From NCBI GenBank assembly GCA_048939625.1, contig JBHLPH010000008.1:23212-87211 (forward strand): DNA of 64,000 nucleotides. The letters are read 5' to 3'. The translations under genes and the position numbers were made by a program. Positions 11,661-24,302 of this stretch are shown piece by piece (positions within the stretch are counted from its first letter, which is position 1; every line of letters begins with the position of its first letter). Below the pieces are notes generated by a model. That model ran no database searches and had not been told where the DNA came from. It saw only the letters and a program-made list of their open reading frames with translations. This stretch comes from Promethearchaeota archaeon (GTDB lineage: Archaea > Asgardarchaeota > Hermodarchaeia > Hermodarchaeales > Hermodarchaeaceae).

Positions 11661-13334
11661 TTGGAGACGGTAATGCCCATGATGGTGAAAAGACGGAAAA
11701 AAACTAAAGGGAAACGCAAACGCTTAGGGCAATTTTATACACCTAACTGGGTCGTCGACTATATTATCCGTCATACGCTGGGCCCTGCCTTCACCCAGGA
11801 TCCAACCCGCCTTTTAGGAGAATTCACTGTTCTTGATCCAGCTTGTGGGGATGGAGCCTTTCTACTCGGGGCGCTTCGTTTCTTATCTGAAAAAGTGGAT
11901 TCCTACCCTGCTGCAAATCAGCGATTACTTCGCCGTAGTATAGTTGACAGTATCCACGGTATCGATATTGATGCAAAAGCGATTAAAGCCTGTCAAGAAC
12001 AATTAGAAAAAGCCAGCAAGACACTCTTAGGTTCACCAGCTGATTTCTCGCAGCGTGTACTCATTGGTAATAGCCTTATTCAAACTGACATGAATGCGAA
12101 AGAAATCTTTGGATCCACTCTGCAAAAACAGTATCCCGTCGATTGGCAGCGTGTCTACCCTTGGGTGATGCGTGATGCAGGGTTTGATGTAATCGTCGGA
12201 AACCCTCCCTTCCTTGGAATCAAAGCTATGGATCCTCAGATTAAGGAGTACATCCGCAGTCGCTATCGAACCGTCCACCAGCAATTTGATATTCTCATCC
12301 CTTTCATCGAACTAGGTTTAACATTACTTCGACCAGGGGGTCGCCTCGGTTTCATCGTCAGCAATAAAGTACTCGCAGCAGATTACGGAAGCCTTCTCCG
12401 AAAGTCCCTTGTCAATAGCTATGTCATTGAACGGATGGTTGACATCTCCCATCTAAATATCTTCGAAGATGCTGCAACCTACCCCCATATTATCATCATC
12501 CGAAAACCAAAATCTCCAGAAGACGTCAAGCACAATAAGATCCATATCCCCACACCACCAACTGACCCAAACGATATGGCATCAGAACCTGTTAAAGTCA
12601 ATCAAGTCCCTCAACACTACTACACTACACTTCCTAATACCATCCTAGCTCCAGCACTAACCGAAAAGAAATTCTCTATACTTCGGAAACTCATCCACAA
12701 CACTATTCCCTTGGGTCAGGCGTGCACAATTCGCTGTGGAATCGCTAAAACTGGTTTTACTAAACAACTCCTTTCAGTCTCTGCCTATAAAGAACTCAGT
12801 CAAACCAGACAACAAAAAACTCTACCTTTTCTAAATGCGGGAGATGTTCGTCGGTATTACTTACGCCGCAAGAAATTTCTCTCTTACACGCCCAAATTAT
12901 CCACCCTTGATCAATGGCGAGATTTCGAAGAACCTAAACTTGTGATTGCAGGAATGGCAAAATGCCTACGAGTCGCGTTAGATCAAACCGGACATGCCCT
13001 GGGTCGCGTCTATTACATCACCCAAACACGTGCACCCTACAATCCCTATTTCATGCTAGGATTACTCAATTCGCGACTCATCAATGCCTACTTCTCCTTG
13101 CTCTTTGTTGCGACGCATCTTCGTAGCGGATACATTCGCTATAACGCCACCTATCTGGAGCAAATTCCCCTCGTAACGCCAACCCAACACCAGGAAGAAC
13201 AATTAGCTGACCTCACCAAGCTAGTTGTTCAAAACCCCAAATACCTCACAAAGGGGCTAGACCACGAAATCGATGATGTGGTCAATAACTTGTATGGCTT
13301 AAACGCTGACGAGGTTTCTTTGTTAGAAGAATAG
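11661..13334 (+). CDS. N6-adenine DNA methyltransferase (TaqI/Eco57I-like, gamma order), solitary
   Basis: GQFYTP, VLDPACGDGAFL, GIDID, VGNPPF, C-terminal LLNSRL TRD-like region. Confidence 0.9.
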   Translation: METVMPMMVKRRKKTKGKRKRLGQFYTPNWVVDYIIRHTLGPAFTQDPTRLLGEFTVLDPACGDGAFLLGALRFLSEKVDSYPAANQRLLRRSIVDSIHGIDIDAKAIKACQEQLEKASKTLLGSPADFSQRVLIGNSLIQTDMNAKEIFGSTLQKQYPVDWQRVYPWVMRDAGFDVIVGNPPFLGIKAMDPQIKEYIRSRYRTVHQQFDILIPFIELGLTLLRPGGRLGFIVSNKVLAADYGSLLRKSLVNSYVIERMVDISHLNIFEDAATYPHIIIIRKPKSPEDVKHNKIHIPTPPTDPNDMASEPVKVNQVPQHYYTTLPNTILAPALTEKKFSILRKLIHNTIPLGQACTIRCGIAKTGFTKQLLSVSAYKELSQTRQQKTLPFLNAGDVRRYYLRRKKFLSYTPKLSTLDQWRDFEEPKLVIAGMAKCLRVALDQTGHALGRVYYITQTRAPYNPYFMLGLLNSRLINAYFSLLFVATHLRSGYIRYNATYLEQIPLVTPTQHQEEQLADLTKLVVQNPKYLTKGLDHEIDDVVNNLYGLNADEVSLLEE

Positions 13335-14120: not shown

Positions 14121-15428
14121 TCATCCACTTTCTTCTGATTCAGCGTCAATTGATGCTAGTTTCCGCCGGTCACGAATCAAGAAGAAAGCTTCAACACAAA
14201 TGGGAATGGCAATCATAATTGCCATGAGGGCAATTCCAATGGTGATGATTTGGTCAAAGGTAAATGGAAATGGGGGTCGGAGTGGTGGTTGATACCCAAT
14301 TGCCGGGATAATATAATCTTCCATGATGGCAGCAAACGTTGCGTCCTCATACGCGGCTGTGAATACAACAATCAGGTTATGCTCTGGCACCACGTTGATT
14401 TGTTGTCCATTATATCCAATTGCCACGTATGCATCAATGGGGAGGTTCAACCACCATTGATAGCCATAACCAATCGTGTCGGTGTCATTGTAAGGGGTCT
14501 CATGGTGTGTGGTGGAGAGATTAACCCAAGAGCTTGGAATAAGCTGTTCTCCATCCCAAGTGCCATTATTGAGGTATAAGAAACCAAACTTCGCCATGTC
14601 CCGGGGCGTAAGGTGAAGATCTGATCCCCCAAACACGACTCCCTGCGGATCCGTTTCCCAGTTGTACTCGGTTATACCTAATGGAGAAAACAAGTGGCTG
14701 TCTGCATAGGCGAGCGTGGTGTCACCCACCGTTTGATTAACGATCATGGAGAGGAGATGGGAGCCGCCACTATTGTAATCCCAGACAGCTCCCGGTTCAT
14801 ATCGCATTGGTTGATCTAACGTATACTGCACCCAATCGGGACTATTGATCATATAAGTAAAACTGCTTGTTGAACCATATGGCCATTCATACCATGCTAG
14901 ACCTGATTCCATGGTTAATAGGTGTTCGATAGTAATGGCTTCTTTTTCGCTAGTGCGGTTAGCAATAGTCCTTTCTGGGAAGAAGCTGACCATGCTCTCA
15001 TTCACGCCTACAATATGTCCTTCATCGATTGCCATTCCAATTAAAGCGGATGTCACGCTCTTTGTACACGAGTAAATGTTACCTCGGTGATTCTGCCCAT
15101 ATGCTGAGTCGAAGTATGTTTCCCATACGATGTAACCATTTCGGATAATTAAAACTGATCGAACTAAGTGACCCCAATACAATTGCCGAATATAGGCCTC
15201 CATGACTTGCAGTTGCGCTGAACTCATTCCTTGGGCTTCCGGACTTGTTGATCGCCAGCCATCGGTAGGCCAATAATCCGGGACTGCAGCTACGTAGAAT
15301 GGATTCAGAGGTTCATAGTAAGCTGAGTTCGCTCCATGAAACACGATTGATATAATGAATAGAGTGATCCAGAATGCTCTACCAGAAGCCATGCTACTCA
15401 CCCTAGTATACAGTGGCTGCTGTCTCAT
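14121..15428 (-). CDS. Membrane-anchored serine hydrolase (beta-lactamase class C family)
   Basis: SCTK (SxxK), HLLTMESG, YNS, GYGYQWW; N-terminal signal and C-terminal TM. Confidence 0.9.
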   Translation of the reverse strand: MRQQPLYTRVSSMASGRAFWITLFIISIVFHGANSAYYEPLNPFYVAAVPDYWPTDGWRSTSPEAQGMSSAQLQVMEAYIRQLYWGHLVRSVLIIRNGYIVWETYFDSAYGQNHRGNIYSCTKSVTSALIGMAIDEGHIVGVNESMVSFFPERTIANRTSEKEAITIEHLLTMESGLAWYEWPYGSTSSFTYMINSPDWVQYTLDQPMRYEPGAVWDYNSGGSHLLSMIVNQTVGDTTLAYADSHLFSPLGITEYNWETDPQGVVFGGSDLHLTPRDMAKFGFLYLNNGTWDGEQLIPSSWVNLSTTHHETPYNDTDTIGYGYQWWLNLPIDAYVAIGYNGQQINVVPEHNLIVVFTAAYEDATFAAIMEDYIIPAIGYQPPLRPPFPFTFDQIITIGIALMAIMIAIPICVEAFFLIRDRRKLASIDAESEESG

Positions 15429-15581
15429 TTAGGTCTAATCTTATATGCTCATGGTATGTGGCAAGAATTTGTCTCAGAAGTATTCTGCTAATTATTGGGA
15501 GATATTAATGTGCTCTGGAATTGTTCTCTCACGTTATAGTATTTATTTTCTCCAAAACCGATATATTTATATTATAGTAGT

Positions 15582-15595
15582 AGATAGTATTCTCA
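15582..15595. promoter_or_regulatory. Operator-like motif AGATAGTATTCTCA downstream of TATA-like box
   Basis: Exact 14-bp copy at 16749-16762; both about 15 bp after a TATA-like element (TTTATATT 15566; TTTTTACA 16734). Confidence 0.55.
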
Positions 15596-15634
15596 TCCCG
15601 TAAGAATATCGGGACATATGGTGGTAAAAGAATA

Positions 15635-15772
15635 ATGTCAAAGAGAAAAATCAACTTCGCTCGCATCGGAGTCGGTGAGCGAGCAGCTCTTGGGTGCAGC
15701 AACCCTCACCCTACGCCGAACTTCAGTCGAGCCTACAAAGTCATGACCTCACGTCGTGGCTCAAAATGGTAA
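15635..15772 (+). CDS. Small protein A, 45 aa (MSKRKINFARIGVGERAALGCSNPHPTPNFSRAYKVMTSRRGSKW)
   Basis: ATG with GGTGG SD and upstream TATA; motif similarity to ORF at 16485. Confidence 0.5.
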   Translation: MSKRKINFARIGVGERAALGCSNPHPTPNFSRAYKVMTSRRGSKW

Positions 15773-15808
15773 AGTCGAATACAGAACATCAAAAGTTGGT
15801 GATAAAAA

Positions 15809-15892
15809 ATGGCAAATAAAAAACAAATTCAACATCGAAACGGCTCCAATAAAGATTACTTCGTTTATTCGTTAATCCTTGCCCGAAGGTAA
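15809..15892 (+). CDS. Small protein B, 27 aa (MANKKQIQHRNGSNKDYFVYSLILARR)
   Basis: GGTGA SD just upstream; C-terminus SLxxxRR shared with ORF at 16485. Confidence 0.45.
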   Translation: MANKKQIQHRNGSNKDYFVYSLILARR

Positions 15893-16136
15893 ACGAATTC
15901 ACACAACAAGAAGACAACCTTGACGAGGGGCTTGGGCTTTACGATGATGTCACGAACTTGGGTCTTCCGGAACTTACGCATCATATACATCCGTTGTCTA
16001 CCCTGTAGGTCCACAAGCCTCAACGGTGCTGGTGGCCAGATCCAACCCCTCCAGCCTCTTGGTCAACATTCGCCGGAAGACCCACTACTTCTCTTTTCTC
16101 ACCTTAATTCCGTGAAAATTTGATGAGGAACATCCA

Positions 16137-16274
16137 ATGAAATACCTTGATAAAACAATGCTGCTTGGATCTCCCACGGAATTATGGCTTTACTTCCATT
16201 TTCGGATGCTAAGACCTAGGCAGTGGTGCCGCTATATCGTGCACTCTGAAACGACTTTACCACCACAAATCTAA
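16137..16274 (+). CDS. Small protein C, 45 aa (MKYLDKTMLLGSPTELWLYFHFRMLRPRQWCRYIVHSETTLPPQI)
   Basis: GAGGA SD upstream of ATG; no motif shared with the other small ORFs. Confidence 0.3.
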   Translation: MKYLDKTMLLGSPTELWLYFHFRMLRPRQWCRYIVHSETTLPPQI

Positions 16275-16484
16275 CCTCTCCCTTCGTCCCGTATGGCCCT
16301 TGCTGGGTTTAGCATCCGTTTTTCACTTTCTGCTGTGGATGTACAGCTGGACAATGGGGAAGGCATATAAGCCTCGAGAGGCTTAACGCTGTTAACTCCT
16401 TAATCATTCAACTAATTACTATAGCAGTATAGCAACTGCCACTATTCACAACACCGATTAGCCAAAACATAAGGGGTGGTAGTT

Positions 16485-16631
16485 ATGGTCCGATACGTAC
16501 TCAATAGATGCAAAGTCCCCGTCTCTGAAGATGAACGAAGAAAAGGGCCTGAGGGACTCGCAGAATGTCGCAATCCCAAGGCACTCTACAAAGGCCCATT
16601 AGAAGAATCGCTCCTCTTTCAGCGACGGTAA
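16485..16631 (+). CDS. Small protein D, 48 aa (MVRYVLNRCKVPVSEDERRKGPEGLAECRNPKALYKGPLEESLLFQRR)
   Basis: Strong GGGGTGGT SD; followed by hairpin/T-tract terminator. Confidence 0.55.
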   Translation: MVRYVLNRCKVPVSEDERRKGPEGLAECRNPKALYKGPLEESLLFQRR

Positions 16632-16656
16632 AAAAAACTGGAATCAAATTTCCATA

Positions 16657-16700
16657 TGGGGATCGACCACTGCCAGTGGTCAACCCCCCACTTTCTTTTC
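16657..16700 (+). terminator. Hairpin + pyrimidine tract terminator
   Basis: TGGGG..GACCAC-TGCCA-GTGGTC..CCCCA then CTTTCTTTTC. Confidence 0.6.
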
Positions 16701-16746
16701 TCCCGTACAATTTCTGGTAATTAAAGGGAAAGCTTTTTACACAACA

Positions 16747-16762
16747 TGAGATAGTATTCTCA
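16747..16762. promoter_or_regulatory. Palindromic operator-like site TGAGA-N6-TCTCA
   Basis: TGAGATAGTATTCTCA between TATA-like box and DUF362 gene start. Confidence 0.55.
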
Positions 16763-16811
16763 CTGCATTAGAAAACTTATCGTCCCGACTCACCCCCGGG
16801 CACACTAACAG

Positions 16812-18020
16812 GTGTCAATATTGCCTTCAAAAGTCTATTTTGGATCCATCCAACACGGCCGAGACGCCCGATTCGCCTCCCTCGGAGCAAAACTCGAAAA
16901 ACTCCTTGAACACCTCGACTTTTCTACCATCGAGAAAAACGATAAAGTTGCCATCAAGATGCACTTGGGCTTTGCTGATGGCTATCAAACCGTCCCAGTC
17001 TTTTTCGTTCGCCGCGTCGTTAAAGCCGTCAAAGAAGCCGGCGGCTGGCCTTTCATCACAGACAATCCCACCGCAGTTTACAATGCTGCTGAAAGAGGAT
17101 ACACCCAAGAAACCTGTGGCTGTCCCCTCATCCCCGTCGCTGGCGTCAAAGACGGTTACACCAAAACAGTCAAAATTAATTTCAAAAAAGTCAAAGAACT
17201 AGAAATGGGTGGTGTCATCCATGATGCCGAAGTCCTCATAGACCTCACCCACGCTAAAGGTCATGCTAACTGCGGATATGGTGGTGCCATCAAAAACATC
17301 GCTCTTGGTGCTTATTCTGGTCCTAGTCGCTGGAACCGAATCCATGGGGTTGAAAACGTCGATCGCTGGTGGGACCCTGAGAAATCCTCACCCGAACATG
17401 CCCAACGACTTGTCGAAGCCTGCCCCTACAATGCCCTAAGCTACGACAAGGAAAAACACCAACTCAACATCGCGCGCTTCCAATGCCACTATGGCAACTG
17501 CACTGAATGCATCAAAGCCGACAAAGATGTTGGCAGTCTCAATCTCAAACCCGAACAATTCGAAGCCTTCCAAAAAATGATGGCTATTGCAGCTAAACAC
17601 GTCACCGATACCTTCGATGAAAACAAGCGTTTCTACATCAACGTCGCCATCGACATCACTCCGCATTGTGATTGCATGGGAATCATCCAACCAGCTGTAG
17701 TTCCACACATTGGTATACTAGCGAGTCGAGATATCGTGGCCATAGATCAAGCCACCCTTGATATGATAGCAGAAAAGGGATTGATCGAAAGCGAGATTCC
17801 CCTTTATTTCAAACATGTTAATCTTGATCCTGATGTTGATTTGCATCCATTTCAGCGGTTGTGGGGTCCATACAAGAATCCCTATAATGTCACCAAGCAT
17901 GGTGAATTGTTAGGAATGGGTCAACGTCAGTATAAGATTACTGAGGTGCTACCGGCAAAGAAGACTCTGACAATGAAACCACCGAAGCATGAATTCGAAC
18001 GAGCCCCTTCATTCTTCTAA
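16812..18020 (+). CDS. DUF362-family Fe-S protein with degenerate ferredoxin insert
   Basis: KVAIKMHLG, THAKGH..GGAIKNIALG, CPYNAL, CDC, ASRDIVAIDQA. Confidence 0.85.
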   Translation: MSILPSKVYFGSIQHGRDARFASLGAKLEKLLEHLDFSTIEKNDKVAIKMHLGFADGYQTVPVFFVRRVVKAVKEAGGWPFITDNPTAVYNAAERGYTQETCGCPLIPVAGVKDGYTKTVKINFKKVKELEMGGVIHDAEVLIDLTHAKGHANCGYGGAIKNIALGAYSGPSRWNRIHGVENVDRWWDPEKSSPEHAQRLVEACPYNALSYDKEKHQLNIARFQCHYGNCTECIKADKDVGSLNLKPEQFEAFQKMMAIAAKHVTDTFDENKRFYINVAIDITPHCDCMGIIQPAVVPHIGILASRDIVAIDQATLDMIAEKGLIESEIPLYFKHVNLDPDVDLHPFQRLWGPYKNPYNVTKHGELLGMGQRQYKITEVLPAKKTLTMKPPKHEFERAPSFF

Positions 18021-23075: not shown

Positions 23076-24302
23076 GTGCGACTCAAATACTACAAACTCT
23101 CTCTGAGAAGTGAGGTACGGGTTACAATGATTGACTTCCAATTAACGAATGAACAACTATCTCTTCAAGCCAAAGCACGAGAATTTGCCCTCAATGAAGT
23201 ACTCCCGGTCGCTCAGCACTATGATCAAACTGGCGAATTTCCCCGTGATGTTATCGCTAAAGCTCATAAAGCAGGGCTCATGAACCTTGGGATACCTAAG
23301 GAGTTTGGCGGACCAGGATATGGGTCCTTTGAGTCAGTTCTTGTTGTCGAAGAATTTTCCGCCGCTTGTGCAGGGATGACAACTTCGATTTATGTTAACG
23401 ATTTGGGTACGACCCCAATCATTCTTGGTGGGAGTGAAATTCAGAAGAAGACGTGGCTTACGCCTTTCTCTAATGAGCTACGGTTTGCTTCCTTTGCAAC
23501 CAGTGAACCTGGTATGGGTTCAGACGTGGCAGGAATACAAACTAGCTACGAACGCAAAGGTGACACCTTTATCCTTAACGGAAACAAATTTTGGATAACG
23601 AATGGAAATCACGCTGACCTGTTCGTTATCTTCGCCCGACAAAAGGGAACCAAACGTCATAACGGGCTCTCTGCGTTTATTGTTCCTAAGGAAACGAAGG
23701 GCCTCTCAACAGGTAAACCCCTCAAAAAACTCGGACATCGCGCCTCCGATACAGCTGCGGTGATCCTCAGGAATGCTGAGATACCTGCTGAGAATCTCCT
23801 TGCTGGGGAAGGCATGGGCTTTCTCCTTGCTATGATGACCTTTGTTAAAACCCGGCCAGCCATTGGTGCTATGGCTACCGGTCTAGCTCGATCAGCTATG
23901 GAGTATGCCATCAACTACGCGAAACAGCGCGAAGCCTTCGAGAAAAAAATCAGCAGCTTTCAAGCCATTCAGGACATGGTCGCAGACATGTATGCGCGTA
24001 TCGAAGCCATTCGCCTTCTCACCTGGAAAGCGGCTTGGATGGTGGACCAAAAAACCGATGGCAACATCGCCAACGTTGCTTCAAGCTGCGCTAAACTCGT
24101 TGGAGCAGAAGATGCTATGAAAATCGTCACGGATGCGCTCCAAATCTATGGTGGTAAAGGATACCTGGAACAGTATCCAATCCAGAAGCTCTTCCGTGAT
24201 GCGAAACTCTACCAGATTTATGAGGGAACTAGTCAAATCCAACGTTATGTCATATCGCGGTATCTCTTCAAGGAATACGAACCCATTTTACAGAACTTCT
24301 AA
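23076..24302 (+). CDS. Acyl-CoA dehydrogenase
   Basis: SEPGMGSD, LNGNKFWITNG, KLGHRASDT, GGKGY, YEGTSQIQ; likely start ATG 23127. Confidence 0.95.
   Translation: MRLKYYKLSLRSEVRVTMIDFQLTNEQLSLQAKAREFALNEVLPVAQHYDQTGEFPRDVIAKAHKAGLMNLGIPKEFGGPGYGSFESVLVVEEFSAACAGMTTSIYVNDLGTTPIILGGSEIQKKTWLTPFSNELRFASFATSEPGMGSDVAGIQTSYERKGDTFILNGNKFWITNGNHADLFVIFARQKGTKRHNGLSAFIVPKETKGLSTGKPLKKLGHRASDTAAVILRNAEIPAENLLAGEGMGFLLAMMTFVKTRPAIGAMATGLARSAMEYAINYAKQREAFEKKISSFQAIQDMVADMYARIEAIRLLTWKAAWMVDQKTDGNIANVASSCAKLVGAEDAMKIVTDALQIYGGKGYLEQYPIQKLFRDAKLYQIYEGTSQIQRYVISRYLFKEYEPILQNF

Follow-up and report, generated by a model that had tools for sequence, protein, structure and literature searches.

Short genes with folded RNA tails: a candidate microprotein cluster in an Asgard archaeal genome

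Archaeal small proteins ("mu-proteins") have been identified in Haloferax volcanii and Methanosarcina mazei by ribosome profiling (Ribo-seq) and proteomics; they are often missed by annotation and often turn out to be regulators or binding partners. For structured RNA at the end of a transcript, the comparison class consists of intrinsic terminators, the terminator-type expression platforms of riboswitches and the oligo-U termination signals of archaea. The Asgards are the closest archaeal relatives of eukaryotes, and no parts of their genomes are less well charted than small proteins and structured non-coding RNA. The subject of this study is a 1.4-kb gap between annotated genes in a Promethearchaeota archaeon of the family Hermodarchaeaceae. 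The gap spans positions 15429-16811 of the window, that is, the whole 64,000-nucleotide stretch that was analysed (positions 23,212 to 87,211 of contig JBHLPH010000008.1, here C3, in assembly GCA_048939625.1), and all coordinates without a contig label refer to this window. The source is an Asgard metagenome-assembled genome (MAG) of 2.3 Mb that is 88% complete.

An earlier note, made from the sequence alone, had described the gap as apparently empty except for four plus-strand open reading frames (ORFs A to D), each led by a Shine-Dalgarno (SD)-like site and together bounded by a TATA box with an operator and by a hairpin terminator. It proposed that the ORFs were a family of regulatory or modified peptides, the latter resembling ribosomally synthesized and post-translationally modified peptides (RiPPs). 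All four ORFs and their SD-like sites were found where the note had placed them, and the bounding elements are present and conserved in relatives. The gap does hold peptide genes, but it is neither empty nor purely peptide-coding, because two conserved structured RNA domains, RNA1 and RNA2, are also present. The note had further allowed that the region might instead fold as a conserved non-coding RNA; RNA structure is indeed conserved, but it lies between the coding ORFs and replaces none of them. It appears fairly probable that regulated microprotein genes are clustered compactly in the gap, each on a short mRNA with a structured RNA tail, and that the gap is not a RiPP locus.

Coding evidence and the microprotein family

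At the DNA level, all 14 same-genus genomes searched retain the whole gap, with 70-78% conservation over up to 1.38 kb, whereas the same search found it neither in the sister genus nor in any other Asgard family. Within the genus, the frame, length and SD site of A, B and D are kept. ORF A always has 45 codons at the same position and its product shows 82-93% amino acid identity in congeners, while D has 47-48 codons and 60-85% identity to the D of the window among the aligned orthologues. In pooled pairwise comparisons, the ratio of nonsynonymous to synonymous differences (pN/pS) was 0.25 for A and 0.26 for D, against 1.2-2.3 in the off-frames, and the substitutions in both ORFs pile up at third codon positions. 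By the usual comparative standard, as judged from these alignments, A and D are protein-coding and under purifying selection. ORF B starts 36 nt after the stop of A and has 27 codons in nine of the ten genomes with an A-B type locus and 26 in the tenth; its pN/pS is 0.69, and only its length and a C-terminal hydrophobic run followed by RR-stop are conserved. In the most divergent congeners B is absent, and RNA1 begins there 18 nt past the A-like stop. ORF C is not conserved as a peptide, showing 31% identity or premature stops in relatives and a length of 5 to 52 codons. The comparison of selection across relatives that the earlier note had proposed for its peptides was borne out for A and D, gave weak constraint for B and failed for C. 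For the latter, an SD-like GAGGA and an ATG (16120-16139) are kept in 7 of 7 aligned genomes, though the frame is only 5 codons long in two of them.

The GGTGGT and GGTGAT sites before A and B are credible SD sequences, because the 16S rRNA of a congener has GGAUCACCUCCU at its 3' end. A single full-length 16S rRNA gene was found in the genus (L184, G005:C71:619-4212, minus strand); it measures 3.6 kb against a model of 1478 positions and must therefore carry about 2 kb of insertions, presumably introns. The GGTAAA context in which A, B and D stop, and the similar CGAAT..ACA spacers that had also been read as marks of repeated units, are not conserved and are incidental: the stop codons in relatives are TAA, TAG or TGA, and the spacer after B is variable.

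ORF A belongs to a family with a common pattern, namely 40-50 residues with a basic N-terminus, an ERA-x2-G-x-RNP core and a C-terminal hydrophobic run that ends in S/T-R-R/H/Q. Four paralogues of 40-50 residues occur in the same genome, one on contig C59, one on C29 and a tandem pair on C53, and all four end in S/T-R-R or R-H at the stop. Membership of A follows from matches to the paralogues at E values of 2e-19 to 0.05, a family profile match at 4e-24 and the presence of both the core and the C-terminal module. The profile gave 1-6 matches per genome in 17 of the 18 other genomes of the same GTDB family, where the copy number is put at 2-6, while 282 other Asgard genomes yielded no credible match and only two marginal ones (E 8e-4 and 4e-3), one of which contains an in-frame stop. 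Against 1.84 billion representative proteins the profile retrieved only proteins of 35-77 residues with the same pattern, apart from large repetitive proteins whose scores are spurious sums of short repeats. The close homologues of A deposited at NCBI are hypothetical proteins of "Thorarchaeota" or "Promethearchaeota" archaea; the family is thus not wholly unannotated, as the peptides had been called, since orthologues of A are on deposit. No match of A, B or D was obtained in Pfam, NCBIfam or PADLOC (E up to 0.1 or 0.01), scores in the ESM Atlas stayed at chance level, and a search of the literature on Asgard microproteins and non-coding RNA yielded nothing relevant. Ribosomal protein eL39 was considered and rejected, PF00832 matching only the canonical gene on C35 and hhalign giving a probability of 0.1%. 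A degenerate motif scan of the genome contigs returned mostly chance matches. The members are hydrophilic and basic (pI, isoelectric point, 9.5-12; GRAVY, grand average of hydropathy, -0.3 to -0.9), and none has a stretch resembling a transmembrane segment, the maximum hydropathy over 15 residues being below 0.8.

ORF D is a single-copy gene found in 12 of 15 genus genomes, counting this one (G000), always at this locus, and is restricted to the genus. It was missed by the A-family profile in genome searches and carries an insertion of 5-7 residues between E-R and C-R-N-P. Alignment of the A family with the D orthologues by hhalign gave P = 5e-5 and 67% probability over 25 C-terminal columns only, so that the likeness between A and D claimed earlier is real but modest; both also fit the N-terminal pattern that had been proposed, at positions 6-15. 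In B, only the last 13 residues align to the A family and D (P about 0.0015), and the ERA...NP core is absent. The common ending noted for B and D, a hydrophobic run with R-R-stop, is the C-terminal module of the family. Because D and B carry this module, the interpretation of the ORFs as diverged tandem units appears sound, and it agrees with the shared CxNP core and with the tandem family pairs at other loci. These alignments suggest full membership of the family for A and a distant relationship for D, while B would be a remnant or a minimal version. A conserved tandem pair, with its members about 360 nt apart, lies at C53:91001-91622 and has equivalents in the genomes G001, G003, G006, G007, G010, G012, G013 and G014; its spacer is strongly folded (z about -4), and an RNA1-type tail follows the second member.

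Structured RNA domains between the reading frames

RNA1 separates B from C, and its structure is supported by covariation. By RNAalifold and pair counts, 93.8% of cells are paired across 11 genomes; changes on both sides affect two closing-helix pairs and four pairs of an inner helix, U-G wobbles favour the plus strand, and sliding the partners lowers pairing to 29-51%. For the possible pseudoknot, different complementary sequences pair in different genomes, and the support is uneven and partial. A covariance model of RNA1 matched 13 of 14 congeners as well as weaker paralogous copies. One such copy stands directly 3' of the second peptide of the C53 pair, with equivalents at the tandem-pair loci of G006 and G013. 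What the copies have in common is the two invariant motifs and the layout of a helix plus T-run, while the helix sequence differs between them; by eye, the same helix sequence is seen in the tail of the C29 family member. Other occurrences of an RNA1 10-mer in the genome stand in unrelated contexts. On contig C9, a paralogue (C9:32185-32398; L054:686-899, minus strand) begins right at the stop codon of a gene of the beta-lactamase family whose C-terminal end is membrane-anchor-like. Paralogues of this C9 type in G013 and G010 have a different upstream context.

RNA2 follows within the same gap as a single-copy domain present in 12 of 14 congeners, and its 16-bp helix is 92% paired with six pairs changed on both sides. 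By eye, a UGCCACC loop motif recurs in the C29 tail, the C53 tail and RNA2, and in the C59 member UACCACC comes just past the stop, with other hairpins further on. Over 250 nt downstream of the family members, folding is more stable than in shuffled sequences, with a mean z of -1.75 against -0.34 for 36 ordinary long ORFs of the genome, a comparison made with crude mononucleotide shuffles and among members that are related and not independent. The sequence and the alignments together place a hairpin plus oligo-U terminator layout at 16073-16100, 16305-16323 and 16658-16700. These features suggest that the unit that was duplicated is a small ORF plus a folded tail plus a T-run.

Comparison with Rfam, which took in archaeal signal recognition particle (SRP) RNA, RNase P RNA, C/D and H/ACA sRNAs and riboswitches, gave no match at the gathering threshold in the window for RNA1 or RNA2; at E values up to 10 only ylbH appeared, with 14.5 bits against a cut-off of 50. 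A scan for tRNA and tmRNA found none. An identity with RNase P RNA was rejected, the RNase P RNA of the genome being located at C62:8144-8521, and so was a role as guide RNA, the complementarity of the RNA1 and RNA2 motifs to the 16S locus of a congener being no better than expected for short words. The Rfam model of archaeal SRP RNA matched nowhere in the 88%-complete MAG, which also has no rRNA genes; either incompleteness or a divergent SRP RNA would account for this. The coordinates of all features are given in Table 1.

Table 1. Features of the gap and its surroundings, in window coordinates
Feature	Position	Strand	Remarks
Perfect palindrome TTCTCA-N5-TGAGAA	13370-13395 (C3:36581)	+	Precedes wHTH (winged helix-turn-helix) gene
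ArsR-like wHTH gene, 214 aa	13452-14096	+	HTH_5 / HVO_A0261_N, below or just above Pfam gathering cut-off
Beta-lactamase-fold hydrolase gene (serine hydrolase of the earlier note)	14121-15428	minus	Left flank of gap, divergently transcribed
TATA box of unit 1 (A-B-RNA1)	15566-15574	+	AT-rich TTTATATTA; hardly varies among 11 aligned genomes
Operator-like inverted repeat TATTCTCA ... AAGAATA	15583-15614	+	Conserved in orthologues
ORF A	15635-15772	+	45-aa basic microprotein, pI 11.7; SD GGTGGT at 15620-15625
ORF B	15809-15892	+	27-aa peptide; SD GGTGAT at 15798-15803
RNA1	15925-16100	+	Structured 3' domain between B and C, about 175 nt
RNA1 possible pseudoknot	15925-15930 with 16046-16051	+	Upstream purine run, C-rich loop
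RNA1 closing helix	15960-15970 with 16073-16083	+	11 bp around interior of about 100 nt
RNA1 invariant motifs	15988-16001 and 16046-16062	+	
RNA1 T-rich terminator	16088-16100	+	Directly after closing helix
ORF C	16137-16274	+	Chance or decayed ORF; SD and ATG kept, peptide not
RNA2	16203-16323	+	Second structured domain; T-run after it
RNA2 closing helix	16203-16216 with 16305-16318	+	Variable interior
RNA2 conserved anti-SD-like loop UUUACCACC	16256-16264	+	
Unit 3 promoter	16364-16396	+	TATA-like 16364-16371; TTAAC-N4-GTTAA 16383-16396; both conserved, 7 aligned genomes
ORF D	16485-16631	+	48-aa basic microprotein, pI 9.5; SD at 16473-16480
Unit 3 end: hairpin 16658-16689 and T-run	16658-16700	+	G+C-rich inverted repeat, kept with sequence changes
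DUF362 gene promoter	16733-16776	+	Same operator box at 16750-16762, at same distance behind TATA-like box
DUF362/4Fe-4S gene	16812-18020	+	Right flank of gap; identified by Pfam

A candidate regulon and the weighing of explanations

The inverted repeat behind the TATA box of unit 1 overlaps the likely transcription start and a small hairpin in the 5' untranslated region. The earlier note had called the DUF362 gene co-regulated, and the same operator-like box was found at unit 1 and at this gene: the 13-mer GATAGTATTCTCA occurs exactly only at the unit 1 operator and at 16750 in the 2.3-Mb genome. Co-regulation of unit 1 and the DUF362 gene is therefore plausible on the grounds of the operator box common to both promoters. 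The palindrome of unit 3 differs from this operator. A near-copy of the whole unit 1 promoter precedes the gene for a major facilitator superfamily (MFS) transporter on contig C58 (C58:11150, minus strand), and a box of the type TTCTCA-N5-9-TGAGAA stands behind the TATA box of four promoters, those of the wHTH gene, the A-B unit, the DUF362 gene and the MFS gene. From their sequences, the four promoters look like a small regulon with an autoregulated repressor, for which the wHTH protein would be the obvious candidate, its link to the operator being inferred. The MFS-like gene encodes 523 residues and has a leader of about 190 nt. Just upstream of the wHTH gene, a 557-residue N6-adenine DNA methyltransferase of the Eco57I/MmeI type with a TaqI-like specificity domain is encoded at 11661-13334, and the gene for prolyl-tRNA synthetase (ProRS) comes next after the DUF362 gene.

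In the favoured explanation, unit 1 would be transcribed from its TATA box and operator as a short mRNA that encodes A (45 residues) and B (27 residues) and ends in RNA1. Unit 2 would consist of the decayed ORF C followed by RNA2 as a second tail of the same architecture, and it would be reached by read-through, because no promoter of its own is visible; if the duplicating unit is an ORF plus its tail, RNA2 would look like a tail that has outlived its gene. Unit 3, with its own TATA box and palindrome, would encode D (48 residues) and end in a plain hairpin and T-run. The tails would act in cis as transcription terminators and as 3'-end protectors of very short mRNAs, and their exposed anti-SD-like pyrimidine loops (CCACC, CCUCC) could damp translation. 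The peptides, which are basic and, by prediction, disordered in isolation, probably act by binding the ribosome or a nucleic acid, their own tails being one possible target, and the wHTH regulator would switch unit 1 together with the DUF362 Fe-S protein, the MFS transporter and itself.

Several observations weigh against this explanation. An RNA1 paralogue lies behind the unrelated beta-lactamase-like gene on C9 and its orthologues, and the tail is therefore not exclusive to microproteins. RNA2 has neither a visible promoter nor a conserved ORF, which makes its designation as a tail a guess, and family members of the sister genus end in a plain strong hairpin with a T-run. ORF B is weakly constrained and may be decaying. 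Duplexes between the initiation region of A and the downstream tails were no better than those of shuffled controls; the RNA2 loop was the best partner of this region in three of nine genomes, with insignificant z-scores, and inspection by eye of covariation between the RNA2 loop and the SD gave one suggestive case only. Since the duplex test was not significant, the anti-SD idea rests on motif likeness. AlphaFold models of A and D built with the family alignments reached pLDDT (predicted local distance difference test) values of 60 and 52 with low-confidence helices, and the fold therefore offers no clue for either.

The alternative that retains some weight, although it is rather unlikely, reverses the roles of protein and RNA, with RNA1 and RNA2 as the functional core. 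They would be attenuators, riboswitch-like or responsive to a protein, and would control read-through from unit 1 into RNA2, D and perhaps the DUF362 gene, with A and B as leader-type ORFs or as a trans-acting partner. This alternative stays in play because the interiors of the RNAs are far more conserved than a terminator needs; the invariant unpaired motifs of RNA1 are common to its paralogues, a pseudoknot is possible, the closing helix abuts the T-run as in terminator-type expression platforms, and unit 2 lacks a visible promoter. Yet A is conserved end to end and has stand-alone paralogues, unlike leader peptides, D and the DUF362 gene have promoters of their own, no alternative antiterminator pairing was found, and no common feature links the genes that follow the paralogous tails. 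That the units might be type I toxin modules, each a toxic small protein held in check by its folded mRNA and perhaps by an antisense RNA, is improbable in our judgement: small ORFs on structured mRNAs with anti-SD-like motifs, present in several copies, tandemly duplicated and restricted to one lineage, would fit such modules, but the peptides are hydrophilic and basic, their low maximum hydropathy leaves no room for a membrane helix, fold-back of 5' and 3' ends or sequestration of the SD found no support in the duplex test, the orthologous positions are stable across the genus, and PADLOC gave no match.

Two further readings are very improbable. The RiPP-like peptides of the earlier note, with A, B and D as precursors and either the DUF362 Fe-S protein or the neighbouring serine hydrolase as the modifying enzyme, would agree with the operator box common to unit 1 and DUF362 and with the cysteine beside NP in both A and D. 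However, paralogues elsewhere have neither DUF362 nor serine-hydrolase neighbours, family members carry Ala, Val or Gly in place of the cysteine, conservation extends over the entire peptides and does not follow a pattern of leader plus variable core, and no radical-SAM, YcaO, lanthionine or protease gene is nearby; DUF362 is not known to have a role in RiPP biosynthesis. This part of the note was not upheld, every defining feature that was tested being absent (maturation enzyme, division into leader and core, corresponding neighbours at the paralogues). Scarcely any probability, likewise, attaches to RNA1 and RNA2 as relics of miniature inverted-repeat transposable elements with the closing helices as terminal inverted repeats. 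Repeats of 11-16 bp around an interior of 100-130 bp in a few copies per genome would be expected of such elements, whereas the orthologous position across the genus, the compensatory changes on both arms with plus-strand wobble pairs, the lack of a target-site duplication at the ends in the window sequence, and the variation of the arms from copy to copy around invariant interior motifs all speak against such an origin.

A bolder extension, for which the odds are distinctly poor, is that the invariant loops of the RNA tails are bound by the basic microproteins to which the tails belong, as autoregulatory ribonucleoproteins, or that RNA1 and RNA2 constitute a new class of archaeal attenuator gating read-through. 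If either were true, the locus would represent a module of protein and RNA that is duplicated as a whole and occurs in a single Asgard lineage only.

Significance and comparison with described systems

The locus yields a well-supported multi-copy microprotein family without described relatives, two families of RNA structure that Rfam does not contain, and a candidate regulon that ties the microproteins and RNAs to an Fe-S protein, a transporter and a wHTH regulator. Should peptides and tails interact, it would offer a compact case in which a protein evolves and is duplicated jointly with its RNA partner; without such an interaction, it still indicates that gene callers and RNA libraries overlook conserved elements in Asgard genomes.

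Like the mu-proteins of other archaea, the members of this family have fewer than 50 residues, a promoter and SD site of their own and a lineage-restricted distribution. They differ in lacking a CxxC zinc-finger pattern, in matching no described family, and in being multi-copy and carrying long conserved RNA tails. Bacterial type I toxin mRNAs such as those of hok/Sok and aapA1/IsoA1 resemble the units in combining a tiny ORF with a highly folded mRNA and untranslated anti-SD-like sequences, and in forming duplicated, lineage-specific modules; the peptides described here, however, are basic and hydrophilic without membrane helices and come from an archaeal host, and the duplex test lent no support to a fold-back onto the SD. 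RiPP precursor arrays share the row of short ORFs, the common motifs and the adjoining Fe-S protein, whereas this locus has no maturation enzyme and no division into leader and core, and its scattered paralogues lack such neighbours. As in terminators and terminator-type platforms, RNA1, RNA2 and unit 3 each close with a G+C-rich helix that leads directly into a T-run, where termination is predicted, but the interiors of RNA1 and RNA2 comprise 100-130 nt with invariant motifs, far beyond what termination needs. The family and both RNA structures are thus undescribed in the libraries searched, while the kind to which they belong, small regulated genes with structured untranslated regions, is a known one.

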